Of a stretch of 64,000 bases of DNA, positions 13,626 to 38,880 are shown piece after piece; the first letter of the stretch is position 1; each line of letters opens with the position of its first letter. The stretch spans positions 530 to 64,529 of the forward strand of contig CAZVFY010000004.1 of NCBI GenBank assembly GCA_964626635.1, written 5' to 3'. The notes beneath the pieces are model-generated. The model was not told the origin of the DNA, made no database searches, and was given only the letters and a program-made list of their open reading frames with translations. The DNA is from an uncultured Candidatus Saccharibacteria bacterium (GTDB lineage Bacteria > Patescibacteriota > Minisyncoccia > Phycocordibacterales > UBA918). Position numbers and translations under genes: made by a program.

Positions 13626-13712
13626 GGAGAGTTGGCTGAGCGGTCGAAAGCGCATCCCTGCTAAGGATGTAGGGGAGCAATCCCCTCGAGGGTTCGAATC
13701 CCTCACTCTCCG
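13626..13712 (+). tRNA. tRNA-Ser (anticodon GCU)
   Basis: Cloverleaf with 7-bp acceptor GGAGAGT/ACTCTCC, anticodon loop CTGCTAA, long variable arm, T-loop TTCGAAT, discriminator G. Confidence 0.85.
13695..13712 (+). repeat. attL-like 18-bp direct repeat (cgaatccctcactctccg) = 3' end of tRNA-Ser
   Basis: Identical 18-mer recurs at 38863-38880. Confidence 0.8.
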
Positions 13713-13772
13713 CACCGAATACTGGTTATCGGCAGACCCGTAGGCTCTTATTTAGAGCCATATAAAATTGCC

Positions 13773-13813
13773 GTTCGAATCCCTTAGAGGTGTCACCTCT
13801 AAGGGATTCGAAC
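13773..13813. repeat. perfect 20-bp-arm palindrome derived from tRNA T-arm (gttcgaatcccttagaggtg|tcacctctaagggattcgaac)
   Basis: Read directly; adjacent to the att region. Confidence 0.75.
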
Positions 13814-13819
13814 TTTTAT

Positions 13820-13852
13820 ACAAAAACAGCTCCTGCAAGGAGCTGTTTTTGT
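13820..13852. terminator. bidirectional terminator hairpin (15-bp perfect stem, A/T runs on both sides)
   Basis: acaaaaacagctcct-gca-aggagctgtttttgt, between tRNA-Ser (+) and convergent oxidase gene (-). Confidence 0.6.
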
Positions 13853-13864
13853 ATTTCTATAATG

Positions 13865-15520
13865 TTACTTCACTTCAAAGTTGAACATCATGCCTGCGTC
13901 TAAATGCTCAGCTATATGACAATGTGCCATCCATGTACCAGGGTTACTCATCTCGATCAAGATGTCGTACGTTGCACCTTCAGGAATCAAGACGGAATCC
14001 TTCCACTGCATGTTCTCATTTAGTTCTCCATCCTTGGCCAAAACAACAAACTTTTGTCCATGGAAATGGATCGGGTGTTGCATAGGGTGCGTTCCTTCAT
14101 CGTCATTGAAGATGCGTACTTTTACCAAGTCTCCTTGATTGAATGACCATCGAATATTTCGATTTCGTTTTTCAGAATCGGTATCCCAAATCTCCCAACG
14201 AATAGTCTCGTCGGTACTCATCCGATTCATCATACCCATATCATCTTCCCACTCAATGCCGTCTTCGCCATGTTCTGCTTCCTCGTCTCCTTCATCAAGA
14301 TACGGTTCACAGCCAGCCATCTCAGGCATCATCTTGCAGTGTTCACGCATCATGTCATCGTCGTTATTTTCTCCCATCATCCCCATGCCTGAACCACCGC
14401 TATTCATGTCATTCATCATTTCACCCATCATGCCCTCCATCTCAATATCCAAACGAAGGTTTTTATCAGGTGCTTTAGCTAGCAGTGTTGCCGCTTGATT
14501 ACGGACGTCAGCGTAATCGGAAGCGTTGCTACGTAAGACCTCAAACTCAACTAGACGATTTGCGTCAGATGGCTCAACGGTCACTGAACCAATCTCCTGG
14601 CCTCGGTGCATGATTGGATACGTGCCTGGTGTATCGTAATACAGTTCGATAACGTATCGCTCTGAAGTACCAATAATTTGATGGTCAATCATTTCTTCTT
14701 TTTCAATCCGTCCTGTATCACCTCCAACTAACTTCATCTGTGCTCCTTCAAACTCTAGTTTGAATGTCCGCGTGCTTGCTACATTCGTGATAAACGTTCG
14801 TGTAATTTCTCCTTGATTAACGGTCAGGTTGTAGTTCTCAGTGTCGTTGATCAGGAGTCGGTCACCAAAGCGTCCCATGAGCGCGTGTGTGACCACCTCA
14901 CGACTGTATTCACCATCTTCGAGGATATCATCGACAATAATATACTCCTCTTGATCTACTTCATTCCAGTAGCCATCTTCGGTAACGATAAAGTTTCCAT
15001 AGAGACCCATATCTTGTTGGTAGTCTTCCCGGACGTGTGGGTGGTACCAGAAGACACCTGTATCAGGGAATTCAAGCTGGTAGCTAAAGGTCTCACCAAC
15101 TTCGACTGCCGGAGTAATCGGTACGGCACCATCCATCTTCCAGTCACCACGCAAGCCGTGAGAATGGAGTGCTGTTTCCATGTCGATGTTGTTAGTAAAG
15201 TTCACCGTTACCTCAGAACCTTTTTCTACCTTAAGAATCGGACCAGGAATCTGACCATTGTATGCCAGTCGCTTCACTGTTCTGTTGCCAACTTCCTGAG
15301 TGACAATAGTCGCTTCCATATCGAATACGTCGCCATCTTTGAGTTCAATAACTTCAGTTGGTTTAACTGACTCCAGTTCGTGCTCTGGAAGCTTTGAAAG
15401 ATCATCCGATCCAAAGTTTGTTAGTGCGTTTTGAAACGCTGGTATTTGGTTGTTACTTTGGAAAAACCAAATACCTCCGATAATGAGCGCTAATGCTCCA
15501 ATTGAAAATATGTATTTCAT
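13865..15520 (-). CDS. multicopper oxidase (CueO/laccase-like) with methionine-rich insert
   Basis: Cupredoxin motifs WYHPH… and C-terminal HCHIAEHLDAGMM; Met-rich segment MEGMMGEMMNDMN…GMGMMGE; N-terminal signal/TM. Confidence 0.85.
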   Translation of the reverse strand: MKYIFSIGALALIIGGIWFFQSNNQIPAFQNALTNFGSDDLSKLPEHELESVKPTEVIELKDGDVFDMEATIVTQEVGNRTVKRLAYNGQIPGPILKVEKGSEVTVNFTNNIDMETALHSHGLRGDWKMDGAVPITPAVEVGETFSYQLEFPDTGVFWYHPHVREDYQQDMGLYGNFIVTEDGYWNEVDQEEYIIVDDILEDGEYSREVVTHALMGRFGDRLLINDTENYNLTVNQGEITRTFITNVASTRTFKLEFEGAQMKLVGGDTGRIEKEEMIDHQIIGTSERYVIELYYDTPGTYPIMHRGQEIGSVTVEPSDANRLVEFEVLRSNASDYADVRNQAATLLAKAPDKNLRLDIEMEGMMGEMMNDMNSGGSGMGMMGENNDDDMMREHCKMMPEMAGCEPYLDEGDEEAEHGEDGIEWEDDMGMMNRMSTDETIRWEIWDTDSEKRNRNIRWSFNQGDLVKVRIFNDDEGTHPMQHPIHFHGQKFVVLAKDGELNENMQWKDSVLIPEGATYDILIEMSNPGTWMAHCHIAEHLDAGMMFNFEVK

Positions 15521-15556
15521 GTGTTTTATAGTTTGCTAGTAATAGGTAAGCGTGAA

Positions 15557-15946
15557 CTAAAATAGTTTGGGATGAAGTATGCCTTTTGAAAACAGTTCTT
15601 GTAGCGGTCTGTAAGAAAAGGTATACGTTCTTTCAGGCGGATAACAATATTGTTTACAAAGAATGCGTTTAGATATACGGAGTACATTGGGAGCAACGGT
15701 CACCGCTGTGGCCAGTAGCCCCGCAGCTGCCAGGAATAAAGTTATCGTTGGTGCCACAGCAAGAAATACTGATTTCCATGCTCCAATATGATCTGCCAAG
15801 TTCATCGGGCAGATGACTTCATCGTGAGACATGAAAGGACAGTCAGTCATGCCCATCGACATATCCATATTTGCTGACATATGGAACAAGCTCACAAACA
15901 TCGTTCCGAGAATAAACAGTAAAATTGTGGCTGACAATATTTTCAT
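15557..15946 (-). CDS. Met/His/Cys-rich small membrane protein, putative copper-handling partner of the oxidase
   Basis: Two TM helices flanking HMSANMDMSMGMTDCPFMSHDEVICPMNLADH; immediately upstream of and co-oriented with the oxidase. Confidence 0.4.
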   Translation of the reverse strand: MKILSATILLFILGTMFVSLFHMSANMDMSMGMTDCPFMSHDEVICPMNLADHIGAWKSVFLAVAPTITLFLAAAGLLATAVTVAPNVLRISKRILCKQYCYPPERTYTFSYRPLQELFSKGILHPKLF

Positions 15947-16011
15947 GTGATGTTGAGTATACCAAAATATCCTTGACCCCTCAGCTCACAGTATCGGGTG
16001 ACCCGGAGCGG

Positions 16012-16085
16012 TGAGAATCCCTTAGCACCCGCAGCGAATATCCGTTATCGGATAGACCCATACACCTTTATTTTAGGCCATATTT
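16012..16085. repeat. degenerate second copy of tRNA-Ser 3' end + downstream flank (tandem att remnant)
   Basis: gagaatccct…gaatatccgttatcggatagacccatacacctttattttaggccatat parallels 13697-13765. Inverted T-arm fragment taagggattcgaac at 16121-16134 mirrors 13800-13813. Confidence 0.6.
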
Positions 16086-16172
16086 TCTCTGTAGCAGTTT
16101 TCGCCTAGTCTGGACCCCAGTAAGGGATTCGAACCGCACACGGCTCAATGTAGCCGTTTGATCAGTTTTGGC

Positions 16173-16649
16173 TTATTTAGCTATAAATTCATTCAGTAGC
16201 TCTAGATACTGAATCTGTGTTTTAGCGGGTATCTTTGGATGTTTAAAAGATCTTATCTCACCCTTGCTCGCAATCACATCTTCCACGGTATCAAAATAGA
16301 AACCTTCTGGTGAAGCAATAAATAAGGCCGCTCGTTTCCATGATTTTTGTATCGCCTTGGCTGCCTGCAGAACACGACTCTTAGTCACTTTGTTCATATA
16401 TTTCACCTCAATTAGATGTACTTCTTTAGACTTGTGATTGATGATAGTAAAGTCTGGTGCTCGCTTAATGATCTCCATCGTTTCAGCTGTAGCAGGACTT
16501 TTTGGGTGCATCTGTGCCAATGATGGCAAGGTCTTCTCGTAGCCAAATTCTAAGATGGTGTACGCATCAGTACTGCGAATCATCTGAGCAAAGATAAGCT
16601 CGGCAATTTTGCCTTTAATCAGTTCGTGGGTGAAGTGGATGTTATTCAT
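16173..16649 (-). CDS. PD-(D/E)XK restriction-endonuclease-like protein
   Basis: Mrr-cat-like N-terminus (GKIAELIFAQMIR…GYE) and PDFTII…EVHLIEVKY (D…E-x-K) motif; motif-level only. Confidence 0.45.
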   Translation of the reverse strand: MNNIHFTHELIKGKIAELIFAQMIRSTDAYTILEFGYEKTLPSLAQMHPKSPATAETMEIIKRAPDFTIINHKSKEVHLIEVKYMNKVTKSRVLQAAKAIQKSWKRAALFIASPEGFYFDTVEDVIASKGEIRSFKHPKIPAKTQIQYLELLNEFIAK

Positions 16650-16722
16650 GGGTTTTATTATAAACCAGTTTGTATAGGCTAAATAAGCAACGTGAGCGTT
16701 TATTTAACTAATTCTATACAAC

Positions 16723-17772
16723 ATGAACGTAACAACACTAATGGTTGGCTATGAACCGTCAGCTTTAGAGACTCTCAAGGGTGCACAACTAACACGGCAT
16801 CAATACTTTCAAGATACCCTCGCTCGATATAATTTTGGCGAGGTTTTGTTTTTGTCTGAAAACGAGAGTAAAGAACAGATTACTTCAATCAACCCACTGC
16901 TCGTATTTGTCACCCATGATACGATCGCTCGGGAACTAAAAGAAATCAAATCTGATTACTTACTCTACGTTATTCCTAACTACAATCAGATCTTTGCTCG
17001 AAAAGCTGAAGTCAAAGAAAAGAAAGAGAAATTGAACAAGATATTCACTGAAGCAGAGGGTGTTATCGCAGAAGTCTTAAGTGGCGAAAAGGAAGATAAA
17101 GACCTGCGTCACTTTGCTTCACTTAGTTACAAAGATATGTACGACATGATTACCAAAGCCTTGATCAGTGATGATGAAGATTTAAAGAAAAATGCTTGGG
17201 ACTTGCTCTGGGATAATAGTCCTAAACACAGTAATCTCATATGGATGCGAGTGCAGATGATGGCTGATTGTTGGCAACACTCTAAAGGAGAATCTTTAGA
17301 GCAACTGATGTTAATGTCCATGGAGTGTCACCTTGAAATGGATCTTGTGAGACAAATGGATGATTTCATTGATGCCGATGGAAATCAGTATCACCAGTAC
17401 ATGTTTCTTGATCCCTATGGTCGTGACGTGAATCACATCAGACGTCTACCCTATGCCCATAAAAACGAAGACAGATATGCCTATGAAGCCAGACTAGAGA
17501 AGAGTGAAATACCCACTAATTTTTTACGGGTACAGTTGGAAGCTAATCAGTATCGACAACAGTGTGACGAATATTTGGAAGCTGAGTGTGAAAAAATTCA
17601 AGTGATACTTGATAGCTACGAAAAGAACCCAAAATCGAGCAAGTCTGAACTTGGCATTACGACACATAATGATGACCAAGATAAAAAGCCTTTAAGTAAA
17701 AAAGAAGTTACAATGTTAAAACAAATGCAAAAAGAGAATAAAAACCTAATGTATAAAAATGAGCACGTTTAG
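16723..17772 (+). CDS. hypothetical protein (349 aa), first gene of + strand island operon
   Basis: Long ORF, AT-rich codon usage consistent with island; no recognisable motif. Confidence 0.5.
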   Translation: MNVTTLMVGYEPSALETLKGAQLTRHQYFQDTLARYNFGEVLFLSENESKEQITSINPLLVFVTHDTIARELKEIKSDYLLYVIPNYNQIFARKAEVKEKKEKLNKIFTEAEGVIAEVLSGEKEDKDLRHFASLSYKDMYDMITKALISDDEDLKKNAWDLLWDNSPKHSNLIWMRVQMMADCWQHSKGESLEQLMLMSMECHLEMDLVRQMDDFIDADGNQYHQYMFLDPYGRDVNHIRRLPYAHKNEDRYAYEARLEKSEIPTNFLRVQLEANQYRQQCDEYLEAECEKIQVILDSYEKNPKSSKSELGITTHNDDQDKKPLSKKEVTMLKQMQKENKNLMYKNEHV

Positions 17773-18301
17773 TATCCCGTTTCCTGAGTATGATATTGCT
17801 GACATACTTCAGAAAAAGTTTCCCAAAAAAGAGAACTTTTCAGTTGCGATACCAATGAGCCGACAACAGAAGTTTTATGACTTGCTGTTGGTTAAAGGTG
17901 AAAATAAACGATCTGTGACAATTCAAGTTAAGAGCTCAAGAACATGGCTGGCAAATGATAAAGATGATTTTCAGTTTGCTTCATGGCTGAATCACTTTGA
18001 TATCAAGAATAACTATAGTGATTTCTATTTCATCTACATGACACATCCAGTGTTTGATGAAAACTTTAAACCGAAGGCAAAGTGGGATCGAAAAATTCTT
18101 GTCTTTAATCAAAAAGAAATGATCAAGATTTTAGACAGTGTAAAAACTAAATCTGGTAAACCGGAAAAGTTTTTCTCTTTTGGGTTTAATGCTGACGGCA
18201 AAATGATTACTGGCGAAAGAGGTTTTTCACACTTACCGAAGAAAAACTTCGCAAAGAACTTATTGGAAAACAAGCTTGATGAAATTCAGAAGAAGTTTTA
18301 A
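17759..18301 (+). CDS. hypothetical protein (180 aa)
   Basis: ORF overlapping upstream gene by 14 nt (translational coupling). Confidence 0.45.
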   Translation: MSTFSIPFPEYDIADILQKKFPKKENFSVAIPMSRQQKFYDLLLVKGENKRSVTIQVKSSRTWLANDKDDFQFASWLNHFDIKNNYSDFYFIYMTHPVFDENFKPKAKWDRKILVFNQKEMIKILDSVKTKSGKPEKFFSFGFNADGKMITGERGFSHLPKKNFAKNLLENKLDEIQKKF

Positions 18302-18328
18302 GTATCAGTAAGTGGTAAAATTTAAGTT

Positions 18329-18730
18329 ATGAAATGGCTAAAAAATAATAGTGTAGAGATTGTACTGTTCCTTGGACTCACACCTTTCCTCATAAATTTT
18401 TTCGGATATCAAGGAGAGGATGAATATGTGATGTCGATCCCAATTCTTGTCCTCGGTCTGATCATGCTTTACAAACGTCATTTTCGTTCGCGTCAAAGAT
18501 ATTCTGACGCCAGCCTCTTTGCTTCAGATTTTGACGATGATGACGACATGTATGAAGATGCAAAGGATGCTGTTATTGAAGCTGGGAAAGCTTCTACGTC
18601 GTTTCTACAACGAAAACTACGCATCGGTTACTCTCGTTCAGCACGTTTGATGGACTTGCTTGAAGAAAATGAAGTGATTGGTCCTGCAAATGGTTCAGAA
18701 CCACGAGAAATACTCCAGAAAGAACATTGA
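18329..18730 (+). CDS. membrane protein with C-terminal FtsK-gamma (winged-helix, KOPS-binding-like) domain
   Basis: Two N-terminal TM helices; C-terminus [56 protein letters not shown] closely matches the FtsK/SpoIIIE gamma domain consensus. Confidence 0.6.
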   Translation: [133 protein letters not shown]

Positions 18731-18797
18731 TCTGCTAGATAAGATTATTACAAAACAGTCACTGATTAATCAGTGACTGTTTTGTATACTAATAGTT

Positions 18798-19109
18798 ATG
18801 AATGATATAAAAACTGCTCGATCTGAGCTCACTAAACTCATCAGTGAACGCTACTCAATTAAAGCGACCATCGACTTGTATCAAGTGGAAAATTTAACCA
18901 AGCGAGAAAAAGAGATTCTTCAATATGGTTTTGAAGAAGGGGCGAAGTGCGAGCTATTAGTGTTACTTTATAGCTTACTTGAAGGAGGAAAAGATGGTAC
19001 AAAGTTTATTGCCGATCGTGTTGTGCACAAAGTTGACGAGCTCAAGGTTTTAATTGAAGACCCAGACTATATTGAATTAGCCGAGTATCTCCGATCACTT
19101 CGTAAATAA
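18798..19109 (+). CDS. hypothetical protein (103 aa)
   Basis: ORF in operon context. Confidence 0.4.
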   Translation: MNDIKTARSELTKLISERYSIKATIDLYQVENLTKREKEILQYGFEEGAKCELLVLLYSLLEGGKDGTKFIADRVVHKVDELKVLIEDPDYIELAEYLRSLRK

Positions 19110-19129
19110 TATTACTCCTAAGAAGTAAT

Positions 19130-19795
19130 TTGAATATTAAGTGTTACTATTTATCAGTAATGTTTAGAAAACAACATAAAGGAGGTCACGTAATAGAATT
19201 TGAGATCTCATTCAACCTAACAGCAATCGGCGACTGGATTAAAGCTGGCGCGAATATCGAACAGCTCGGTCAAAAAGCACCAAATTGGTATCGTTCAGAC
19301 GATGGGGATACTCTGTACCCTGAGCTTAACTCGTATCGTATTGATGTTGTACCTTATGCAGAAGGTTTTGATGCGTACTATCACCGCAGAGCTAATCAGC
19401 TATCTAACAATATCAGTGGAACAGACTATCTCAGAAATGCAGACAATGAAATTGCTAGATATTGTGAACGACACGGTATTAAAAGCTTTCGCTGGGAAAC
19501 TTGGAACCAGTACATCACTGCCACAGTAAACGAAGAGTTTTTTGTGATGATGGTACCGATATACAAGTTTATTGAGTTACAAACCAATGGAAAGCTAAGT
19601 AATGATAGTTTTGTTGGAACTCGCATTGATACTGAGCAAATTAAGGTGGATGTTCCACTTGCACTCAATGATGATGGTACCGCTAAAAAGACCATGCCAG
19701 TCTGGCATGGTACTGCATCACCGAAATCTATCGGATATATGAACGAGCTAGTCTCAATCTCTGGACATACGTTAAATTTTGAGGTTGAGTACTAG
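19130..19795 (+). CDS. hypothetical protein, first gene of 4-gene tightly coupled module (start ambiguous: TTG 19130 or ATG 19160)
   Basis: Stop lies 2 nt before the MotB-like gene start. Confidence 0.45.
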   Translation: MNIKCYYLSVMFRKQHKGGHVIEFEISFNLTAIGDWIKAGANIEQLGQKAPNWYRSDDGDTLYPELNSYRIDVVPYAEGFDAYYHRRANQLSNNISGTDYLRNADNEIARYCERHGIKSFRWETWNQYITATVNEEFFVMMVPIYKFIELQTNGKLSNDSFVGTRIDTEQIKVDVPLALNDDGTAKKTMPVWHGTASPKSIGYMNELVSISGHTLNFEVEY

Positions 19796-19797: not shown

Positions 19798-20508
19798 ATG
19801 GCGACGCAACAAACATCAAATTGGATATCTCTCTCAGACATGATGACTGGTCTCATGCTCATCTTTTTGTTGATTGCTGTATTAGTTACCATGCAGATTA
19901 CTCAAGAACAAAAACAAAGACAACAGTCAGTTGCGGAGTACCAAGAAATTAAAGATGATATTTACGCTGATCTAAATGAAGCATTTGCTTCTAAGGAAGA
20001 TGAGTGGGGTATCGCTATTACCCGTGATCTTGTGATCAAGTTTGAGAACCCTGATCTTCTATTTGGAGTTGATGAATCAAACCTTAAAGAAGAATATGAA
20101 GTTATTTTAGATGAATTTGTTCCACTGTATATTGGCATCATAAATAAAGAAGAGTATAAAGATCGAATTAAAGAAGTGCGAATCGAAGGTCATACAGCTG
20201 ACGTGTCGGATGCTCATCCGACATATATGAGCACCATTTCTCTGTCTCAAAATAGATCCAATGCTGTTTTAGAGTATATTCTTGAGAGTAACTTTTTCAA
20301 TTCTTTAGACAACGACCAGCAGAGCAAGCTAAGATTTTGGTTTAGTGCGAATGGTCTAGGTAACGGACGAACTTTAGACGAAAATAGCCAGTTTACATAC
20401 ACAACCAATGCTCCGATCAGTCCAAATTCAAGAAGAGTAGAGTTTAGGATTCTCACAGATAGTGAGAGTTTGATAGACGAAATTTTTAGCCAAGATATTA
20501 ATATATAA
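19798..20508 (+). CDS. MotB/ZorB-like protein (TM plug + OmpA-like peptidoglycan-binding domain)
   Basis: N-terminal LSDMMTGLMLIFLLIAV resembles the MotB plug/TM with a conserved Asp; C-terminal OmpA-like SLSQNRSNAVLEYI…RRVEFRI. Confidence 0.65.
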   Translation: MATQQTSNWISLSDMMTGLMLIFLLIAVLVTMQITQEQKQRQQSVAEYQEIKDDIYADLNEAFASKEDEWGIAITRDLVIKFENPDLLFGVDESNLKEEYEVILDEFVPLYIGIINKEEYKDRIKEVRIEGHTADVSDAHPTYMSTISLSQNRSNAVLEYILESNFFNSLDNDQQSKLRFWFSANGLGNGRTLDENSQFTYTTNAPISPNSRRVEFRILTDSESLIDEIFSQDINI

Positions 20509-20512
20509 ATTT

Positions 20513-31077: not shown

Positions 31078-31347
31078 CTACTGTCTGTATCCATCCGTAC
31101 CACCAACAATTGAGTATGATTCTTGTTGGCAACAAGATATGCTCTCGTGTTTGTATTTTATGTGAAAGCAGAGGCTGTAATAACCCCATCTTTACCAGAC
31201 ACAGACAAGCAATGTCTTTGTGACGATAGTGCGCTCACTATATCCATAGACACAGTGATTCTGACTATTTCTTTGTCGAACAAAGAGAGTACGGTGGCAG
31301 AAATCCGTAAACGCCTGCTCAATACGGTAACTCATAGGTAGTATAAC

Positions 31348-31382
31348 AAAAAAGATGCCCCTGACCGTTTCCAGTCAGGGGC
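31348..31382 (-). terminator. rho-independent terminator for DGR target gene (9-bp GC stem + T-run on minus strand)
   Basis: gcccctgac-cgtttcca-gtcaggggc preceded on + strand by AAAAAAG. Confidence 0.5.
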
Positions 31383-31458
31383 AAAATTTGCATCGAGTTG
31401 CTTCGCAACAAGTCAAAAATCAAAGACTCAAAAGGTTCAAGCCTTCAATTTTCAAAGA

Positions 31459-32370
31459 TCACTGCGGAAGAACACCCGAAGCCGACCCATAGCGGTCGTC
31501 GGCATAGTCGGCCCAGAACGCGCCGAACTTGACCCCGCCGTCGTTGAACCCGAAGACCGGGGCGCGGCCAAAGCGACCATCGGCAACCGGATCATCGAAC
31601 TCGTCGCCAGCGCAGTCAATCCAGAGATCGTCATAGCGCTGGAGACGTTCGGGATGGGTGAGCAACATGACACCGACAGCAAACGAACCGAGACCGTACT
31701 GACCCTGGTCGACCATGACCTCGCGAGCACGGCGAACCGAACGACCGCGATGAGTGAGACCGAACTGGGCAGCGATCACGAGGATATCGGGATGACCCTG
31801 TTCCTCGGAAAGCTTCCGCATCGTTGCTTCGGTACGAGCCGATTGGCGGAGATGCTTCGGGCCGAGCTGACCGTCACGGTAGTTGTAGAACGCACCGTCA
31901 CGATCCTGCTTGATCAGGTCGAGGACGCGAACAACATTGTCGTTGTAGGTGCCGGGCACGGGCGAATTGTCCTTCCAGATGTTGGGGATAGCGAACCATC
32001 CTTCGGCACCCTTGGGCAGTTCGCCCGGGTCGGCAACTTCGGCCCCTTCTAGCTGCGGATACAGCTCCTTGAGACGCGTGACCTGATCGGCGAGCTGCTT
32101 GGGCTCGTAGCCCGACAGGTAGCCATAGGTCGATTCGACCTCTTCATCTTTGTATTTGTCGTTGGTCGACAGCTCAGTGAGAGCGAGGACGGTCGCTGCA
32201 TGAATGCGGGCAGAAAAGTCTGCACTGCCTTTCACACGTTCAGCACCTTGCTTGCTGAGATAGTTGGCGTCGGCATAAGCCTTCACCGCCTTCTCGACAG
32301 CATCGGTAGCCATGCGGTTGAGTTGCTTGACTTGACCGTCAGTGGCCAGTTCATGAGTAAGCGTTGTCAT
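31459..32370 (-). CDS. DGR target (variable) protein; VR occupies last ~42 codons
   Basis: C-terminus …DDRYGSASGVLPQ encoded by the VR; the conserved 3' end is shared with the TR. Confidence 0.8.
   Translation of the reverse strand: MTTLTHELATDGQVKQLNRMATDAVEKAVKAYADANYLSKQGAERVKGSADFSARIHAATVLALTELSTNDKYKDEEVESTYGYLSGYEPKQLADQVTRLKELYPQLEGAEVADPGELPKGAEGWFAIPNIWKDNSPVPGTYNDNVVRVLDLIKQDRDGAFYNYRDGQLGPKHLRQSARTEATMRKLSEEQGHPDILVIAAQFGLTHRGRSVRRAREVMVDQGQYGLGSFAVGVMLLTHPERLQRYDDLWIDCAGDEFDDPVADGRFGRAPVFGFNDGGVKFGAFWADYADDRYGSASGVLPQ
31465..31590 (-). repeat. DGR variable repeat (VR)
   Basis: Homologous to TR, with substitutions exclusively at TR adenine positions. Confidence 0.85.
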
Positions 32371-32537: not shown

Positions 32538-34031
32538 TCAATCTGACGCTGTCGCCTTCCATTCTGTTAGCTTACTGGCTTCTTCTTCAAATCGCTCTAA
32601 ACTTTTAAACTGTTTTGGTTCTAAGTTATGTAGCTCAATACCAGGATCAGGCAGGAATATCTGCAAGGGGTATTTATCCTTGTTGTCATACACCATCTGA
32701 TTTATGTGGTCATCAAGATGACGAAAGCAAAAGTTGAGTAACTCCACCGACTTCGCAATTTCATCTAGCTGAGCGTTGATTTTGTGCGTCACATTAACAC
32801 CAATCATCTCAGACATCCGTTCCGCTACTTCCTTGAAAGCGAGAAGATATTGGTAGTTCTCATAGACATGAGATTGATGAAGTAGGTAGTTAGGGAAAGC
32901 GAATAGTATAAGGTCGTCTACCTGCTTTTCGTATTCAGTCACAAATGCTGACTGTGACTTAGACTTCACCAAGCTTTTACCTGAGATGTATGTTTTGTTA
33001 AGACTCACTTCAAAGAACCGAGTTGGACACTGCTCGATCTCTATCTTTCCGTTCTTGATCAATGTCTTTAGTTTTCGTTCACTTTTATCTTTGGCTTTGA
33101 GCCACAACTGCATCAGTTCGTTATGTGGTAACTTGGTCTCTCCTTCGTAGGTAGTGTGACCAGTGCAGTTACACAGTGGTATGTACTCACTAAAGAATAA
33201 GCCATCACGCACAGTGTCACTTACCACCTGTTCTAGCTTGTATCGGAGATCACTTAGCTGACCGAGCTTGGTGCGCAGTTCGTCCTCGTCTTCATATGCA
33301 ATGTTATGTCTTGATGCCAGTCGTTTGCCGAACTCAAGCATTGAGTAGCCAGCAAAGTGGGTATTAAAGAGCACTTGCTTTATATTGATCTTTTTATCGA
33401 GAAAAGACAGCTCATGTCCCCACGGAATCGTATCGATAATGATTTTGGTTAATGTCTCTACGTCTCCATCATTTAATGACTCTTTGCCGTGTACTATGCG
33501 AGCTAGTTGTTCCTCAGTTAAAAAGTAGCTGTGATTAGTATCTGCAATGGAGTCTAAGAGTAAGATGTCTGACTGAATATCTTTTGGTAATGAGTGTAGT
33601 GTGACGAGGTGTGCCAGTCGGTCGTATTCATACCCAGAGTATTGCAGAAAAAATTGACGCAGCTCTTCTCGTTGATCATCGGGAATAATCCGATCAAGAT
33701 AATATTTCCGTTGTCCTTCATCGTTCTTTTTAATATCAAACAGTGTTGCGGTATGCTCGAGGCGAGATAGTGCCAGCATAGTCGTGAGGTAATTAGTCTG
33801 CATATCAAACTCCAGTCGCCCGAACATATCCCAGAGATTGATGTACTGATTGTATTTTTCGGCTTCACGATAGTCTTGAGGTTTCCAGTTTATGGTCAGT
33901 GCCACCATATCTGCCTCACTAATCAGCTCCTTGCCAGTCTTTTGGAAATGAGCATCATTTCGGATCACTAAAAGTACCCGCTCTTTCGGCGTTAGGTTTC
34001 CTTTGCGTAGCATTTTAGTGATGTCTTTCAT
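32538..34031 (-). CDS. hypothetical protein (497 aa)
   Basis: Long ORF, no recognisable motif. Confidence 0.5.
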   Translation of the reverse strand: MKDITKMLRKGNLTPKERVLLVIRNDAHFQKTGKELISEADMVALTINWKPQDYREAEKYNQYINLWDMFGRLEFDMQTNYLTTMLALSRLEHTATLFDIKKNDEGQRKYYLDRIIPDDQREELRQFFLQYSGYEYDRLAHLVTLHSLPKDIQSDILLLDSIADTNHSYFLTEEQLARIVHGKESLNDGDVETLTKIIIDTIPWGHELSFLDKKINIKQVLFNTHFAGYSMLEFGKRLASRHNIAYEDEDELRTKLGQLSDLRYKLEQVVSDTVRDGLFFSEYIPLCNCTGHTTYEGETKLPHNELMQLWLKAKDKSERKLKTLIKNGKIEIEQCPTRFFEVSLNKTYISGKSLVKSKSQSAFVTEYEKQVDDLILFAFPNYLLHQSHVYENYQYLLAFKEVAERMSEMIGVNVTHKINAQLDEIAKSVELLNFCFRHLDDHINQMVYDNKDKYPLQIFLPDPGIELHNLEPKQFKSLERFEEEASKLTEWKATASD

Positions 34032-34033
34032 AC

Positions 34034-34240
34034 TTACCTTCGTTCACTTAAGAGTTGTTCTAATACATCGATACGTTGTTTGAGTTCAAGGTTAGAGATA
34101 TTCTTCGATAGAGCTAGTGCTAGTCGAGAGATGGTTTGTGCTCGCTTCGGTGAAATTTTGCGAGTAGCGACTTGTAGCAAGGCTTCAGAGAGAATTACGT
34201 TCACTTCTTCTAAGGTGAGTAATTTTTGTGTTTCGTTCAT
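34034..34240 (-). CDS. hypothetical small coiled-coil protein (68 aa)
   Basis: ORF 2 nt downstream of the next gene. Confidence 0.35.
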   Translation of the reverse strand: MNETQKLLTLEEVNVILSEALLQVATRKISPKRAQTISRLALALSKNISNLELKQRIDVLEQLLSERR

Positions 34241-34242
34241 AT

Positions 34243-34635
34243 TTAATAATTTTCGATTAATTCAAACCACGTCTTTACTTCCTTCGACTTACCGTGCTTC
34301 GTGACGTTCTTATACAAAGCCAGCACCACGTTTGGGGTTAGCTTTCGTGCCCACGCACAAGTGTGTTCGACCAACCCTTCTTCTTCGATAATCTTGTTCC
34401 AGTCAGTGAGCGTACCAAGGTCTTTGATATCGTATTCCGCTGCAAAATCTTTTTGAGTTTTGATACGAAGCAAATCAATCACTACTTCGTCCTCAATACC
34501 CATCTTGCGTATCACCGCTTCTGGCTGACCACGAAGAAACGTTGGTAGTGACTTCCATGTTACGTAGGTGGTAAAATCTTGTTTGCGGTACACACCATCA
34601 CTTTTCTTTGGTTGTTCATTGTGGGGTGTGTTCAT
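34243..34635 (-). CDS. hypothetical protein (130 aa)
   Basis: ORF overlapping the methyltransferase gene by 20 nt. Confidence 0.4.
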   Translation of the reverse strand: MNTPHNEQPKKSDGVYRKQDFTTYVTWKSLPTFLRGQPEAVIRKMGIEDEVVIDLLRIKTQKDFAAEYDIKDLGTLTDWNKIIEEEGLVEHTCAWARKLTPNVVLALYKNVTKHGKSKEVKTWFELIENY

Positions 34636-35392
34636 AATTCCTTACCAATTTTCGTTTCTGACCCGTTAGTTTCTCCAGTCGCTTAAGTGCAATCTCCACA
34701 TACTCGGCATCTTGCTCAATCCCAACGCACTGCCGACCCAACTGTTCGCAAGCGAGTGCTGTACTGCCACTTCCTAAGAAGCCATCAAATACCACGTCCT
34801 CAATCTTGGTGACATTACGAATCAGTTTACGAAGTAGCCCAATCGGCTTTTGGGTTGGGTGGAGTTTCGATTTCTGTGGTCGTGGATGATAGATCGCACT
34901 CCGCATTTGTGACGCTAGCTTCTTATGCTTACCAAACCAGCCATAAGCGATAAGTTCTTGTTGGGGCAAGTAGTCCATCCGACCCATGACAGGTTGATTC
35001 TTTAGCCACACTAACATCTGGCTGAAATGAAATTCAGCTGTGTATACGCCGGTGCGTAGTGCCAAGAACATCGTGTCACAGTTAAAGATATGAAAGGTGT
35101 TGTATGTATCGAGGTGTGGTTTGATGGAATCAAGCCACGACTCGGTAAAGCGAGCGTATTCGTACTCACTCTGGAGATGATCACCCTTGATAGCTTTGGC
35201 GTTAGACACACCGAGCTCAGCCACTCCTTCTTTATTTTGAACGTACGCCACTCCATACGGTGGATCGGTCACAATCGCTCGTACTTTCTGACCCTGCAAT
35301 ACTTCAGACACAAACGAAGCGTTGCAGCTATCACCACAACCAATGAGATGTGTACCTACTAGGTAGATGTCTCCGTGTCGTATCTTTTTCAT
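34616..35392 (-). CDS. DNA methyltransferase (beta-class N6A/N4C, pfam01555-like)
   Basis: IVTDPPYGVAY (motif IV) then HPTQKP and VVFDGFLGSGSTALAC (motif I). Confidence 0.8.
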   Translation of the reverse strand: MKKIRHGDIYLVGTHLIGCGDSCNASFVSEVLQGQKVRAIVTDPPYGVAYVQNKEGVAELGVSNAKAIKGDHLQSEYEYARFTESWLDSIKPHLDTYNTFHIFNCDTMFLALRTGVYTAEFHFSQMLVWLKNQPVMGRMDYLPQQELIAYGWFGKHKKLASQMRSAIYHPRPQKSKLHPTQKPIGLLRKLIRNVTKIEDVVFDGFLGSGSTALACEQLGRQCVGIEQDAEYVEIALKRLEKLTGQKRKLVRNYEHTPQ

Positions 35393-36672
35393 ACGCGCTT
35401 AGCAGTTTGCTTTGTAAACTTCTCGAAGCGGTCAATGATGACACTCGCAAATACAGGATCAAGCTCGACTCCATACCACTTACGATGCAATTGTTCGCAG
35501 GCAATTAGGTCACTGCCACTGCCTCCAAAGCCAGAAAACACAACGTGACCGGGAGCAGTACAACGCTTCAGGGGTTTTTCACTCAAACCAACAGGCTTCT
35601 GTGTCGGGTGCAAATAATCTTGGGTGTTGTCTCGCTTCACAATCCACAAATCGATCATGTCTAGCAATTCTTCATGGAGCTGATTACCACTTGATACTTC
35701 TTGGTTCAATATCTCGTGAGCGTTCTTGAGATTCTGATTCAGATGTGGTTTGCCAGTAGTACCGTAAATACAGGGCTCATGGACTCGATTGAAAGCCGTC
35801 TGCGGGGTCGGGTTCATGTTGTTTTTTGCCCACAAACAGAGTCGCTTGAAGTGTATCTTTTGCTCTGCAAATATTGTCTGAAGTGCACCGATGTACTTGG
35901 AATCATTCCAGACAAAGTAGTGTGCATTTGGTAGTGCAATTGTTCGGGCAGTTGCAAGACTCTGGGCTAGAAACTCTATATATGCTTTGTCAGTTTTTGA
36001 ATCATCTTTAGATGAATAACCGCCTCCATATTTTTTGCCGTTTCCAATACCTTTGTCATATGAAAGCCCAATATTATAAGGCGGATCAAAATAAATTAGA
36101 TGCGCTTTAGTGTCACCCATGAATTTAGATACCAGCTTTTGGTCAGTTGAATCGCCCACGAGCAGGAAATGTTCACCTAATTGCCACACTTCACCAGTCT
36201 TGGCTCTTGGCTTATCCATTTCTTCAATCGCTTTCTCAACATCATAGTCGTCCTCAGCCAATTCAACGTCATCAAAAAAGTCTTGCAGTTCTTCGTCCGC
36301 AAACCCAACGTCAAGCAGGACATCGAGGTCAAATGCCTTCAGAAGCTCTTCATCCCAAGACCCGGTGTTGTGATTTAAGCGAAGATTCAGCTCACGTTCT
36401 TCTTCGAGTGTGAGTTCCCGAGAGGGAATCATACACTCGACTTCTTTGTATCCAAGGTCAGCGTATATCTTTACTCGTTGCTCACCCCCGATCAGAACAT
36501 CAGCTCGTGAGCCGATGTTTAGCACTACTGGTACCACCGCACCAAATTCCTCGATTGATTTTTGAAGATTGTGCCGTTCTTCTCCCTCCATCTTGCGTGG
36601 GTTATACCCATTGGGTGTGAGGTCTTTCACCTTACGCTTCGTGGATGACCACGTTATCTTTTTCGATTTCAT
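35389..36672 (-). CDS. ParB-like nuclease domain / DNA methyltransferase fusion
   Basis: N-terminal ParB/Srx fold (…NPRKMEGEERHNLQKSIEEFG…); LIYFDPPYNIG; HPTQKP; VVFSGFGGSGSDLIACEQL. Confidence 0.8.
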   Translation of the reverse strand: MKSKKITWSSTKRKVKDLTPNGYNPRKMEGEERHNLQKSIEEFGAVVPVVLNIGSRADVLIGGEQRVKIYADLGYKEVECMIPSRELTLEEERELNLRLNHNTGSWDEELLKAFDLDVLLDVGFADEELQDFFDDVELAEDDYDVEKAIEEMDKPRAKTGEVWQLGEHFLLVGDSTDQKLVSKFMGDTKAHLIYFDPPYNIGLSYDKGIGNGKKYGGGYSSKDDSKTDKAYIEFLAQSLATARTIALPNAHYFVWNDSKYIGALQTIFAEQKIHFKRLCLWAKNNMNPTPQTAFNRVHEPCIYGTTGKPHLNQNLKNAHEILNQEVSSGNQLHEELLDMIDLWIVKRDNTQDYLHPTQKPVGLSEKPLKRCTAPGHVVFSGFGGSGSDLIACEQLHRKWYGVELDPVFASVIIDRFEKFTKQTAKRV

Positions 36673-36825
36673 AATACTGTTTTCTTAGGCACGCTATGTG
36701 CGTGTTAGTATCAGCATCACATTTTTAAAGCCTCTTGAATAAGGTGAGCAAATTAGAGTAAATCAAAAATAAGCCTTGTAAAATACAAGACTTTTATAAC
36801 TATCCCCAGGCAAGTTTACTCCTTC

Positions 36826-37932
36826 TTACTCTTTCGAGACTAAATTATTAAATCTAATAGTTGTGTTTGTTACCTTGATGATGGGCTCACCATCTTCAGG
36901 ATGAACATTTTTGATATTTTGCTTGTGTAGCAGATTCATGAAAGAGCCGTTACTTTTCATTAGCTGTGTGCGGTACGTTTCACCGCTATTTGTTTCTTTA
37001 GGCCCTAATTTTTTATTAAACTCATCCACTCGAATTTCAATTTGTTCCTTGGGCATGTATTCCAGTATGGTCTTAAACAGCGTGATGAACCTTGGATCTT
37101 TGCCATTAGTACGTTTAGAATATTTAAGTTTTCCAGCGCGGTAGTGATATATGTCATCACCTTGTATAGAAAATATCTGTTTTTTCTGATGCTGTTGTTC
37201 TTGGTTATGTATAACAACAGAAGTGTGAATACGCTCTAGATCTGGCTTATATAACTCAACCGAAATAGGATCGGCTTTTTTATGTTTGAGTTTGCCATAT
37301 GTACGTACGAGCCGATCAAAGGCACCAGCTAAAGTCATACGATCTGCTTTTTGAAACTCAGCCGTTACTTCTTTGCAAGCTTTCAGAGCTTGGTGCAATT
37401 TTATGTCAAAAAAGCTGAATTCTTTTTTAGTATGTGATGGTTCTGCAATGAACTGACGGATCTCCTCGTCGTGTCCTAACTGTTCTAACTTGCGTAACAC
37501 GTCGCTGTATTCAGAGATGATTGAGTCATATCGATTACCGCCAGAGAGTTGAGTGTAGTCGAGGAGGGAGTGATAATCACTCATACGGTCTTTGATTGTA
37601 TGATCCTCTTGGAGCTTGAGTCTGCTTACAAGTTTATCGAGTTTTTTGTATGTTTGGTAAAAATCTTTATCAAGCTCAGTCCATTGATGTTCCAGCTCTT
37701 CCTCTTGTTTAGTACGCTCTGACACATCTTTATTCAAGTGGGTCAGGAGTGAGATTCCTTCCTCAGATATAAAGTTAAAATAGTCTACGAGTGCAGCGCT
37801 GAAATCCCAATCGGTAGTCTGATTTGAGGCTGTTTCAAATAGGAGAGCTTCTTTTTGGAGTAGTGTTTGCATAGTATTATCATTATAGTACTGATTTACC
37901 TGCATTACACTAAAATTGGCATTGTTTGGCAT
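36826..37932 (-). CDS. hypothetical protein (368 aa)
   Basis: Long ORF; no motif recognised. Confidence 0.45.
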   Translation of the reverse strand: MPNNANFSVMQVNQYYNDNTMQTLLQKEALLFETASNQTTDWDFSAALVDYFNFISEEGISLLTHLNKDVSERTKQEEELEHQWTELDKDFYQTYKKLDKLVSRLKLQEDHTIKDRMSDYHSLLDYTQLSGGNRYDSIISEYSDVLRKLEQLGHDEEIRQFIAEPSHTKKEFSFFDIKLHQALKACKEVTAEFQKADRMTLAGAFDRLVRTYGKLKHKKADPISVELYKPDLERIHTSVVIHNQEQQHQKKQIFSIQGDDIYHYRAGKLKYSKRTNGKDPRFITLFKTILEYMPKEQIEIRVDEFNKKLGPKETNSGETYRTQLMKSNGSFMNLLHKQNIKNVHPEDGEPIIKVTNTTIRFNNLVSKE

Positions 37933-37972
37933 TTAGAGACCCCCGACCCGGACACATCAGAAAATCGACGGA

Positions 37973-38272
37973 TTGATCATCAATATACCCTTGTGGTGTC
38001 TACAGCGTGGGGTACTTAACCCGAGTGGCCCGCATCCTCGAGCTAGCTCGAGACAACATATGACGTTAGAAAATGTAGCAGACATAGCTTCAATCTTCAG
38101 TGCAGTATTTGCCTTAATAGGCTTGTTTGGTTTGGGAGCGATAGTCTATAAGTTCGTCTTTAAGCAAAAGAACGACACAGTTTTTAATGTGCATGGTGAT
38201 ATCAATGGTGATGTCGTTACTGGGGGTATAGCTGGAAAAAATAAGTCTGATATTCCAAAACAGTATGAATAA
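37973..38272 (+). CDS. hypothetical small membrane protein
   Basis: One TM helix (IASIFSAVFALIGLFGLGAIVY). Confidence 0.3.
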   Translation: MIINIPLWCLQRGVLNPSGPHPRASSRQHMTLENVADIASIFSAVFALIGLFGLGAIVYKFVFKQKNDTVFNVHGDINGDVVTGGIAGKNKSDIPKQYE

Positions 38273-38591
38273 TAATCAACTTAAAATTGAACAAGGTACG
38301 ATTAGCTTTTGGATTAAAGAAAACGCTATAGATTTTGACGATGGGAAAGTTACGCGTATTTTCCAGTTAGATCCTGATGGGGGTAGTATTCTTTGTGTTA
38401 AAGATGACGACAATATGTTGAAGTTACTGTTTGTTGTTTTAGGAAAAGGGAGAGTTGATATAGAGCACGATGTTTCTGTATTAGAAAAGGACAAAAGACA
38501 CATGATAGCTTTTACCTGGAGTTTAGAAAATAAAGAAATTGTATTATTTTTAGATGGAAAAAAAGTAGCGACAAAAGAAATTACTTTTTAG
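38265..38591 (+). CDS. hypothetical protein (108 aa)
   Basis: ORF overlapping the previous gene by 8 nt. Confidence 0.3.
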   Translation: MNNNQLKIEQGTISFWIKENAIDFDDGKVTRIFQLDPDGGSILCVKDDDNMLKLLFVVLGKGRVDIEHDVSVLEKDKRHMIAFTWSLENKEIVLFLDGKKVATKEITF

Positions 38592-38730
38592 AGCCCGAGA
38601 CACTATCAAATCAAAATCTAAAAATAACTAAATCCGTCAAGCCTGCCTTGACTGTCCACGGTTCTAACTCGAGGAAGCCCGCGAGCACCGAAATAAGTCC
38701 GTTAGGACTTATTTCGTTTTGTGCGAGCGC

Positions 38731-38746
38731 GAGAGTGAGGGATTCG
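38731..38746. repeat. inverted copy of tRNA-Ser 3' end (gagagtgagggattcg)
   Basis: Reverse complement of cgaatccctcactctc; ~115 bp left of the direct copy. Confidence 0.7.
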
Positions 38747-38862
38747 AAAGACGCAGACTCATGTGAATTTTGTAGCGAAGCGGAGGAAGAGAGAGTCGAG
38801 TCAGGGTCGTGAGCAACATATTTTCCATGACCGGAGGGAATAAGAAAATAGTTGACTCCTGA

Positions 38863-38880
38863 CCGAATCCCTCACTCTCC
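38863..38880 (+). repeat. attR-like 18-bp direct repeat (cgaatccctcactctccg)
   Basis: Identical to tRNA-Ser 3' end 13695-13712. Confidence 0.8.

Follow-up and report, generated by a model that had tools for sequence, protein, structure and literature searches.

The window, a 64,000-nucleotide stretch of DNA from an uncultured Candidatus Saccharibacteria bacterium, contains a tRNA-Ser(GCU) gene (GCT in DNA letters) at positions 13626-13713 of the forward strand (ARAGORN; Rfam tRNA, 60 bits). A first-pass annotation had described the DNA that follows as an AT-rich island, and calculation of the composition showed that it is indeed not uniform: the GC content is 0.42 between 13720 and 38692 and about 0.54 outside (0.543 in the left flank, 0.535 in the right). 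The 18-mer CGAATCCCTCACTCTCCG from the tRNA end occurs exactly (18 of 18 nt) at 13695-13712 and again at 38864-38881, one base to the right of the position first given for that copy (38863-38880), and was matched in 0 of 100 shuffles. A third, inverted copy of the tRNA end is found at 38729-38748, 117 bp to the left of the right-hand copy, and more tRNA-3'-like fragments lie inside the island at 13773-13813 and 16010-16134. The tDNA on the left of the island and the displaced direct tDNA fragment on its right give the arrangement sought in an Islander-type test. The 25-kb AT-rich block is a horizontally acquired, foreign island in a small CPR/Patescibacteria genome. The surrounding locus is shared with Ca. 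Nomurabacteria CP060229: the order tRNA-Ile(TAT), malic enzyme, tRNA-Ser(GCT) is the same, the two malic enzymes are 71% identical, and the 5' half of the window's tRNA-Ser(GCU) is common to the malic-enzyme-adjacent tRNA-Ser(GCU) of CP060229, in which a broken large serine recombinase (LSR) gene directly follows the tRNA. A search for an uninterrupted tRNA-Ser site from the same population found none.

The gene content originally described for the island (an LSR, a Type III restriction-modification system, a DUF2779 protein, a DGR, two methyltransferases and a MotAB-HNH module) was recovered by Pfam and PADLOC, and its composite nature was borne out. The island comprises four units: E1 (2.3 kb), E2 (22 kb) and two short remnants, E3 and E4. 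The proposed B arm of the attachment site is the 3' half of the tRNA itself, from the T-loop GGTTCGAATCC to ...CTCTCCG (within 13626-13713, forward strand). It is followed by J0 (13713-13816, forward strand), a conserved post-tRNA stretch that we term modA and read as the right half (P') of a putative attL. J0 consists of CA, 13 nt, ATCGGCAGACCC (13728-13739) and a perfect 20+20 palindrome, GTTCGAATCCCTTAGAGGTG, identified by repeat analysis at 13773-13813; modA is homologous to an IMG/VR relative at two places. The E1 cargo, bounded by J0 and J1, lies on the reverse strand at 13865-15946 and comprises a multicopper oxidase (13865-15520; Pfam) and a 129-aa ORF (15557-15946). Because it has no recombinase, E1 is a non-autonomous unit or a remnant. 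J1 (16010-16134, forward strand), located by blastn and pattern search, is an internal junction of P with P': GGTGAGAATCCCTTAGCACCCGCA, which mimics the 3' half of the tRNA, precedes GCGAATATCCGTT and ATCGGATAGACCC (16047-16059), and a second copy of modA comes next, with an extra copy of the motif nearby at 15993-16004.

E2, the main LSR element, extends over 22 kb from 16.04 to 38.03 kb. Its first segment (16173-19795, both strands) is variable cargo of six small ORFs, one of which (18329-18730) encodes an FtsK-gamma-domain protein; the other five received no family assignment from Pfam, PADLOC or PHROGs. The MotAB-HNH module is a Zorya type II system on the forward strand (19798-22372), in which ZorB (MotB/OmpA-like, 19798-20508), ZorA (MotA-like, 20513-21550) and the HNH protein ZorE (21554-22372) occur together in the order B-A-E (PADLOC E-values of 3.5e-68 for ZorB2, 1e-55 for ZorA2 and 6e-47 for ZorE2). 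Beyond the LSR gene, the DUF2779 gene (23757-25226, forward strand; Pfam, with weak Cas4-like matches in PADLOC) corresponds precisely to an indel of gene size against the IMG/VR relative, the blastn gap running from 23718 to 25234 of the window. A LOOT RNA motif (25336-25457, forward strand; Rfam) is followed by the Mod (25441-27222) and Res (27224-29521) genes of the Type III restriction-modification system (forward strand; Pfam), whose products are 56-93% identical to those of loci L089 and L168. The DGR (29518-32370; Pfam) comprises an RT (29518-30588, reverse), bAvd (30559-30906, forward) and a target gene (31459-32370, reverse); repeat analysis placed TR at 30947-31077 and VR at 31460-31590, and all 21 of their 21 differences fall at TR adenines, so that the RT, the Avd and the TR/VR pair expected of a DGR are all present.

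The remainder of E2 is the conserved backbone of the element family, on the reverse strand (32538-37932; Pfam) encoding a 497-aa ORF, a 130-aa ORF, an N6/N4 methyltransferase, a ParB-methyltransferase and a 368-aa ORF; Pfam detected two N6_N4 methyltransferases in the island. This backbone is collinear with L089, L090, L113 and L168/L169, and in relatives the cargo slots are occupied by a Type I restriction-modification system with Shedu, a RelA/SpoT-like gene or a ThsB-like TIR gene. The backbone gave no PHROG match, and no capsid, portal, terminase or tail gene was found when ten ORFs, including the eight lacking a Pfam family, were compared with PHROGs; the only matches among these ten were the LSR (integrase) and one family of unknown function. 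The island ORFs outside this set have non-phage Pfam assignments.

E2 ends at J2 (38009-38034, forward strand), where GGGGTACTTAACCCGAGTGGCCCGCA, again a mimic of the tRNA 3' half, forms the distal end (P arm). Elements in L090, L104, L108, L145, L146 and the IMG/VR relative terminate in this sequence as well, and homology between the window and that relative stops exactly at J2. Between J2 and J3 lies E3 (38035-38659, forward strand) with a 108-aa LamG-like ORF (38265-38591; Pfam). J3 (38660-38692, forward strand), the outermost LSR-type junction, contains a second P-arm-like sequence, GGTTCTAACTCGAGGAAGCCCGC, followed by GAG and the 7-mer CACCGAA, which recurs after the tRNA at 13713-13719. 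The small module E4 (38689-38881, forward strand) consists of a terminator hairpin (38689-38716) and of the inverted tRNA 3' end and the direct copy, with the 117-bp spacer between these two. A terminator and an inverted tRNA-end fragment likewise stand behind the P arm of L090 and L146, as at J3. In the IMG/VR relative and, in tandem, in L092, the E4 architecture immediately follows tRNA-Ser genes that have no island. The right-hand repeat of the first-pass annotation belongs to this module, in which the tRNA end is present in both inverted and direct orientation.

The proposed integrase of E2 is an LSR of 450 aa (22385-23737, reverse strand), convergent with the tRNA. Pfam identified a resolvase domain (PF00239, 3.4e-19, residues 33-177), a Recombinase domain (PF07508, 1.6e-15) and a zinc ribbon (Zn_ribbon_recom, PF13408, 1.6e-08), and the protein, with these three domains and a YARKST active-site motif, is intact. 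Its nearest solved structure is SPbeta SprA/YokA (1e-13, aligned over residues 34-378), and among the PHROGs it matches integrase best (1.7e-62). A secondary match there, to DNA invertase, and one locus (L089) with an LSR and no nearby tRNA-Ser, could be taken to mean that the protein is an invertase, resolvase or regulator hitch-hiking in defence islands that gather at tRNA-Ser for other reasons, but the full LSR architecture with its recombinase and zinc-ribbon domains, the top integrase match and the conserved motifs that co-occur with the LSR at both element ends, oriented relative to it, make this the most improbable of the readings considered.

We compared the window with 83 related loci (80 metagenomic and 3 from a viral collection) bearing LSR homologues of 65-95% identity. 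In approximately 30 of the 83 a tRNA-Ser gene with a GCT, TGA, GGA, CGA or ACT anticodon lies downstream of the LSR and convergent with it, at distances of about 120 bp to 9 kb. A strict junction pattern was present in 42 loci, always downstream and convergent and never otherwise, against a control of 7 context-free matches in 1.28 Mb. Altogether, a convergent tRNA-Ser or an att-type junction follows the LSR in about half of the 83 loci and in nearly all of those with enough sequence, and the opposite orientation was encountered in none of the 83. L089, the closest homologue with long flanks, has neither tRNA-Ser nor motif within 10 kb downstream. L146 is a complete 5.7-kb element bounded by the motif end and the distal P arm, with the LSR as its sole recognisable recombinase. 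The IMG/VR contig, a close relative, has the homologue of the element at this malic-enzyme/tRNA-Ser site, where a further LSR element stands in tandem with it; the contig lacks the DUF2779, 368-aa ORF, Zorya and oxidase genes.

In 29 distinct junctions the motif ATCGG-N-AGACCC keeps a constant 35-nt register relative to the T-loop, and a conserved distal arm, GGTACTTAACCCGAGTGGCCCGC, occurs in 7 loci, including the window at 38011. The same P' (GCAAATATCCGTT ATCGGATGACCCATACACC) stands behind three different left arms in L092, L094 and J1 of the window, and the J1 P' family also occurs with other left arms in L092, L094 and L103. L094 and L165 have one left arm in common but differ in P', and so do L096, L098 and L103. 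Where junctions share one arm only, the sequences switch directly after ...CCGC, which places the crossover just 3' of the tRNA rather than in the T-loop and brackets it without pinning the exact dinucleotide. It follows that the 18-bp repeat from T-loop to tRNA end is not the footprint left by the crossover of the LSR element. A crossover inside the tRNA with an element-supplied 3' end was considered for these junctions and rejected, as the 3' part of the tRNA travels with the target side. In textbook LSR sites, inverted half-sites flank a 2-bp crossover and the outer motif lies nearer the centre in attB than in attP. Here the P and P' arms show only weak dyad symmetry, and at the array P-P' junctions the mimic stands in the same register as the real T-loop, with no outward shift.

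These observations suggest the following model. The LSR would pair the attP of a proposed circular element with an attB at the tRNA-Ser gene. The P arm of attP would mimic the tRNA 3' half (a T-arm-like hairpin, then ..CCCGCA), and its P' arm would consist of some 12-13 nt followed by ATCGG-N-AGACCC; in attB, any tRNA-Ser gene would provide the left arm with its own T-loop and the 3' strand of its acceptor. In window coordinates, the attP would correspond to about 38009-38034 joined to 16034-16060, or to 38660-38685 joined to 13713-13740. The strands would presumably be exchanged at the discriminator or the encoded CCA, within a few nucleotides past ...CCGC, which would leave the tRNA intact, with no need for rebuilding. 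The same site may then have accumulated additional elements, or units that, like E1 with its multicopper oxidase, have no recombinase. To our knowledge canonical LSRs do not recombine attP with attL or attR, and array formation accordingly needs an extra assumption. E2 would be the LSR-integrated element, combining a conserved methyltransferase backbone with swappable anti-phage cargo (Zorya II, Type III restriction-modification, DGR, DUF2779), and would move between cells. Judged from sequence, it is likely that the island is a tandem array of integrative elements directly 3' of tRNA-Ser(GCU), from 13.7 to 38.9 kb, and that the LSR it carries inserted E2 there.

The model leaves unaccounted for the perfect 17-18-nt repeats of four loci (the window, L146, tRNA#1 of the IMG/VR relative and L092), which run from T-loop to discriminator and in each case agree with the tRNA at that locus, a sequence that varies from host to host. 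Such repeats are a classical signature of tDNA islands (PMC4383910), and they would be explained if the island, or its oldest layer, had been exchanged inside the T-loop by this LSR or another integrase, so that the element supplied a new tRNA 3' end, the original was displaced to 38864-38881 and the 18-bp repeat is a true att duplication. We regard this as unlikely: the LSR junctions break after CCGC, in the IMG/VR relative and L092 only about 140 bp, and no island, separate the tRNA from the repeat with its inverted partner, and the conserved ends of the elements lie 172 bp inside the repeat in the window and about 60 bp inside it in L146.

Still less probable is the interpretation originally offered, in which the island was the work of a tyrosine integrase that has since been lost, with the LSR as part of a separate element nested mid-island. 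tDNA repeats are usually the footprints of tyrosine integrases (PMC4383910), which speaks for such an origin, as does the position of the LSR gene: 8.7 kb separate it from the tRNA and 15 kb from the right repeat, and its neighbours are 12 and 19 bp away. As first reported, no tyrosine integrase is present: Pfam gave 0 tyrosine recombinase matches at E<=0.01 among island ORFs of at least 99 aa, and still none when four unknown ORFs were rescanned at E<=1. In the ORF table, as we read it, non-coding gaps reach at most about 550 bp, and the longest one is occupied by the DGR template repeat; with no gap large enough, a tyrosine-integrase pseudogene has no room. Convergence with tRNA-Ser is systematic among the LSR homologues, at distances that can be as short as about 120 bp, the repeat modules also occur at island-free tRNA-Ser genes, the LSR gene is collinear with backbone genes in four relatives, and it is not itself flanked by att-like sites. 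A horizontally acquired, composite island at tRNA-Ser is what stands of that interpretation; the lost tyrosine integrase and the nested LSR do not.

Returning to the LSR-built array, we lean, by a narrow balance, towards a broader generalization: that a widespread CPR/Patescibacteria clade of LSRs is specialised for tRNA-Ser of any anticodon, using the T-arm and acceptor end as one attB arm and an attP with a mimic of the tRNA 3' half, and that it is the main vehicle moving and stacking anti-phage systems (Zorya, restriction-modification, Shedu, TIR, DGR) in these tiny genomes. If true, this would be a serine-family mode of tRNA-gene targeting that leaves the tRNA uncut; a 2014 database paper described serine recombinases of the large type as not known to target tRNA genes.

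Several known systems resemble the island in part. Islander-type tyrosine-integrase islands (PMC4383910) share with it tandem accretion, AT-rich cargo and the pairing of a tRNA gene on one side with a direct copy of that gene's 3' end on the opposite side. The island differs in that it has no tyrosine integrase, that the exchange probably falls after the tRNA instead of inside it, and that the repeat exists without an island too. Prochlorococcus tycheposons (bioRxiv 10.1101/2020.12.28.424599) are likewise tRNA-linked cargo elements that accumulate in tandem in a streamlined genome. Nearly all, as far as the text of that preprint indicates, have tyrosine recombinases that cluster by target tRNA; an LSR is reported there for 27 of 937 tycheposons and cryptic elements, and the LSR-bearing ones are not presented in that text as tRNA-specific. 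Compared with tycheposons as described there, the window island differs in cargo and hosts. With the serine integrases of temperate phages (SPbeta SprA, A118/LI Int, phiC31, Bxb1) it shares the Resolvase, Recombinase and zinc-ribbon domains and putative short attachment sites, but no phage structural genes were detected in the island and the LSR has low identity to solved members (E 1e-13). The phage-encoded large serine integrases that we know of target protein-coding genes or intergenic sites.

The staphylococcal cassettes, including SCCmec, are inserted by the large serine recombinases CcrAB or CcrC at the 3' end of rlmH/orfX without inactivating the gene, and their sites hold tandem composite islands with variable cargo, including cassettes that have no recombinase. 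The island differs from them in that its target is a tRNA gene rather than a protein gene, its host a CPR bacterium, its putative attP endowed with a mimic of the target 3' half, and its recombinase encoded by a single gene. As in SCCmec, a probable LSR-type insertion at the 3' end of a conserved housekeeping gene, which is not inactivated, is combined with tandem stacking and variable cargo, and E1 corresponds to the recombinase-less unit.

The large serine recombinase (LSR) of the island, a 450-aa protein encoded at 22385-23737 on the reverse strand, belongs by its domain content to the large serine recombinase family and is the proposed integrase of the element that carries it. A metagenome scan recovered LSR homologues at 80 loci (65-92% identity), and a viral collection added 3 further loci with up to 95% identity. 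In about 30 of these 83 loci, the LSR is followed downstream by an ARAGORN-predicted tRNA-Ser gene on the opposite strand, as in the window, at distances of about 120 bp to 9 kb and with the anticodons GCT, TGA, GGA, CGA and ACT. The 3' ends of these tRNAs are followed by a conserved motif, ...CCGC(C)A, 12-13 nt, and then ATCGG-N-AGACCC(GAGTGCC). The strict junction pattern is present in 42 of the 83 loci; it always lies downstream of the LSR, in convergent orientation, and never elsewhere. Most of the remaining loci either lack downstream sequence or carry variant motifs. The T-loop GTTCGAATC lies 35 nt from ATCGG in a single register at 29 distinct junctions, whether or not CCA is encoded. 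The exception is the closest long relative, L089, which breaks the tRNA-Ser rule. This recurrent association argues against the suggestion of the first-pass annotation that the LSR is a stranger nested within the island.

Other features of these tRNA-Ser loci were recorded. In Ca. Parcubacteria BP_640 (L027, 12240-12360), tRNA-Ser(GCT) is followed by a motif TATTTAGTATCGAAGGACCCC resembling P', the proposed attP arm just after the tRNA, and no LSR homologue was found within the 8.8 kb of sequence downstream; the site could be a remnant, or the cargo slot could be longer than 8.8 kb. The anticodon ACT is unusual for tRNA-Ser in bacteria. ARAGORN predicts such genes in L092 (10195-10282), L096 (14962-15049), L168 (15983-16070) and L056 (1-88), as well as in L126, L127, L154 and L159; they differ in sequence and often adjoin tRNA-Ser(GCT) and LSR elements, and that of the IMG/VR relative, L168, has a 5' half in common with the tRNA-Ser(GCU) of the window.

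In the window, tRNA-Ser(GCU) occupies 13626-13713 (ARAGORN and Rfam), and the island beside it can be divided into units E1-E4 and junctions J0-J3, an array that would have formed in tandem at the tRNA-Ser site. At J0, the tRNA is followed by P' (13713-13739) and a post-tRNA module ending in a palindrome; 13773-13813 is a perfect 20+20 palindrome of the tRNA-3'-like sequence GTTCGAATCCCTTAGAGGTG. E1 extends to about 16.03 kb and encodes a multicopper oxidase and a 129-aa ORF without a recombinase. At J1 (16010-16059), the distal attP arm, P, is joined to P', within a degenerate second copy of the tRNA end plus downstream sequence (16010-16134). E2, the LSR element (16.04-38.03 kb), comprises in order six small ORFs, a Zorya II system, the LSR, a DUF2779 gene, a LOOT RNA match, Type III Mod and Res, a diversity-generating retroelement (DGR), and a backbone consisting of ORFs of 497 and 130 aa, two methyltransferases and a 368-aa ORF. 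It ends in a conserved P arm at J2 (38009-38034), beyond which lies E3, a remnant of 0.6 kb that contains a LamG-like ORF. At J3 (38660-38692) there is another sequence resembling the P arm, and CACCGAA, the 7-mer found directly after the tRNA, comes next. E4 consists of a terminator hairpin, an inverted tRNA-3'-like copy (38729-38748), a 117-bp spacer and a direct copy of the tRNA end. The palindrome of GTTCGAATCCCTTAGAGGTG, the degenerate copy at J1 and the inverted copy in E4 had been overlooked in the first-pass annotation.

The island was correctly described as AT-rich: GC is 0.36-0.46 between 14 and 39 kb versus about 0.54-0.58 in the flanks, and averages 0.42 over 13720-38692 (left flank 0.543, right flank 0.535). 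Lower-GC stretches (0.44-0.49) also occur outside the island at 46000-51000 and 55000-57000 and may be other acquired segments.

The distal end of the element is defined by the P arm GGTACTTAACCCGAGTGGCCCGC(A), found in seven loci (window copy at 38011), where the LSR lies between it and the tRNA. It is a hairpin-plus-tail resembling a tRNA 3' half and is preceded by AATACCCTTA. In L146, a 5.7-kb element is complete between its tRNA-side and P-arm ends, and the LSR is its sole recognisable recombinase. Comparison of junctions sharing one arm bears on the point of exchange. The right arm GCAAATATCCGTT ATCGGATGACCCATACACC is joined to three left arms, namely the end of a real tRNA(ACU) in L092, another tRNA-like end in L094 and, in the window, the mimic at 16010-16033; conversely, one left arm is joined to different right arms in L094 and L165, and likewise in L096, L098 and L103. 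In every shared-arm comparison the switch falls directly after CCGC, so the T-stem and acceptor sequence goes with the target side, which speaks against crossover within the T-loop in these elements. Our initial model, a crossover at CG or AA of the T-loop, was abandoned after this comparison. These alignments place the putative exchange at or just after the discriminator, with the tRNA left intact, and the earlier reading of the tRNA-3'-end duplication as an integration footprint is thereby disfavoured for the LSR elements. The dyad symmetry expected at serine-integrase sites is weak here, and the array junctions show no attP/attB register shift. A 4-nt outward shift of the P arm holds at J3 of the window alone and fails at other junctions, and was not relied on. 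A direct repeat of the relative's own tRNA end upstream of the LSR, sought within 10-kb flanks in each relative, was found in L146 only, because elements longer than 15 kb do not fit within such flanks. When both flanking genes were looked up by exact protein match, every contig retrieved either bore the island or was broken at the hairpins; neither an empty site nor an excised circle was recovered.

What, then, is the 18-bp repeat? An exact copy of the 18-mer CGAATCCCTCACTCTCCG stands at 13695-13712, and no match arose in 100 shuffles; its right copy, likewise exact and real as claimed, lies at 38864-38881, one base to the right of its first placement. The tRNA end, its inverted copy and its direct copy form a triplet that is also present in relatives: directly after the first tRNA of the IMG/VR relative (a repeat of 17 nt whose copies are separated by about 140 bp, with no island), after tRNA-Ser(GCU) of L092 (a tandemly repeated unit of about 150 nt), and beyond the P arm in L090 and L146. 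Since the triplet occurs without an island, the repeat can exist without a 25-kb insert, and in both the window and L146 its place is beyond the last of the conserved element ends. Both copies, inverted and direct, agree in each host with the tRNA sequence of that host. The repeat could be a local duplication kept uniform by gene conversion, a miniature element with a perfect-mimic P arm, or a relic of an older T-loop integration. The tRNA-Ser loci of L092 (reverse complement, 1640-1800) and L008 (12380-12440) also contain 5' tRNA fragments, inverted 5' acceptor-strand copies and what is left of a tRNA end from another host, which suggests repeated rearrangement at the tRNA-Ser site across genomes.

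The gene list first drawn up for the island proved correct, and its MotAB-HNH module is a Zorya type II system (19798-22372, gene order ZorB-ZorA-ZorE) with a short ZorA of 345 aa against profile lengths of 420-590. The absence of a tyrosine integrase was likewise borne out: no island ORF matches a tyrosine recombinase, and by our own reading of the ORF table the coding density leaves no room for a pseudogene of one. The 368-aa ORF by the right end was considered as a diverged integrase and dropped, as both Pfam and PHROG support are absent, and a prophage reading of the island was dropped because structural genes are absent. The DGR is canonical, with 21 of 21 TR-to-VR differences at TR adenines; its bAvd gene is on the opposite strand to the RT, TR, VR and target gene, its start overlapping the RT start (29518-30906 for RT and bAvd), an arrangement also found in L168, L119 and L122. 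The LOOT RNA is a full-length Rfam match at 25336-25457 on the forward strand (55 bits versus a gathering score of 46.4, E 5e-8), directly upstream of the Type III mod gene and overlapping its start; blastn shows conservation of this region (25234-25955) in the IMG/VR relative. Compared with that relative, the window has the DUF2779 gene as a clean insertion of gene size (23718-25234), placed between the start of the LSR and the LOOT/mod region, and the product of this gene has weak Cas4/Cas1-like PADLOC matches. Between an FtsK-gamma gene and the next ORF lies a perfect 19+19 palindrome, TACAAAACAGTCACTGATT/AATCAGTGACTGTTTTGTA (18749-18786), with weak sub-threshold Rfam psRNA14 matches on both strands.

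The IMG/VR contig UViG_3300000970_000154 (28 kb) encodes a malic enzyme 76% identical to that of the window, then two tRNA-Ser genes and a homologous element that is 82-85% identical in nucleotide sequence across the LSR, R-M, DGR and backbone. Its tRNA-to-LSR cargo differs from that of the window, it has neither DUF2779 nor the 368-aa ORF, and it stops with the same P arm; a second LSR element starts there. The backbone is collinear in L089, L090 and L113 too, and the cargo slots of relatives hold Type I R-M with Shedu, RelA/SpoT-like and ParB-like genes, a third LSR and a ThsB-like TIR gene. The third LSR (L168, 14467-15822, forward strand; 451 aa, Resolvase plus Recombinase) is strongly diverged and lies about 160 nt from tRNA-Ser(ACT), within the region treated as a cargo slot; the L168 array may have one more layer. 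The elements constitute a family of defence islands that are borne by LSRs and whose cargo is exchangeable.

The malic enzyme encoded in the flank shares 71% identity with its counterpart in Candidatus Nomurabacteria HK-STAS-PATE-25 (0.99-Mb genome), which has the order tRNA-Ile(TAT), malic enzyme, tRNA-Ser(GCT) in common with the window and a frameshifted LSR gene directly after tRNA-Ser; the host is thus a Patescibacteria/CPR bacterium. The 25-kb island would be about 2.5% of a genome of that size. A tRNA-Ile with anticodon TAT is uncommon in bacteria; that of the window (6935-7011, reverse strand) is conserved in position in related CPR genomes (L008, 3432-3505; L157, 726-800).

To our knowledge, the genomes of CPR bacteria measure about 1 Mb, and no conjugation systems are known from these bacteria. 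If the proposed model is true, it would show a route by which they swap defence systems, and a clade of serine integrases that is specific for tRNA-Ser and whose attP mimics the target would broaden the picture of tRNA islands. Island finders demanding a tyrosine integrase would overlook islands of this kind. Serine integrases do not need host factors, and such a universal, conserved target could, on the same premise, offer an integration tool for otherwise intractable bacteria. Our literature search, which did not extend to later large surveys, returned neither a report of LSRs targeting tRNA-Ser nor a counter-example. In textbooks, site-specific islands at tRNA genes are the work of tyrosine integrases, and the unusual feature here is the target class, a tRNA gene. 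The nearest known analogue, in functional terms, is SCCmec: its LSR targets the 3' end of a housekeeping gene, which stays undisrupted, and tandem composite islands likewise form there, some of whose units are without a recombinase.
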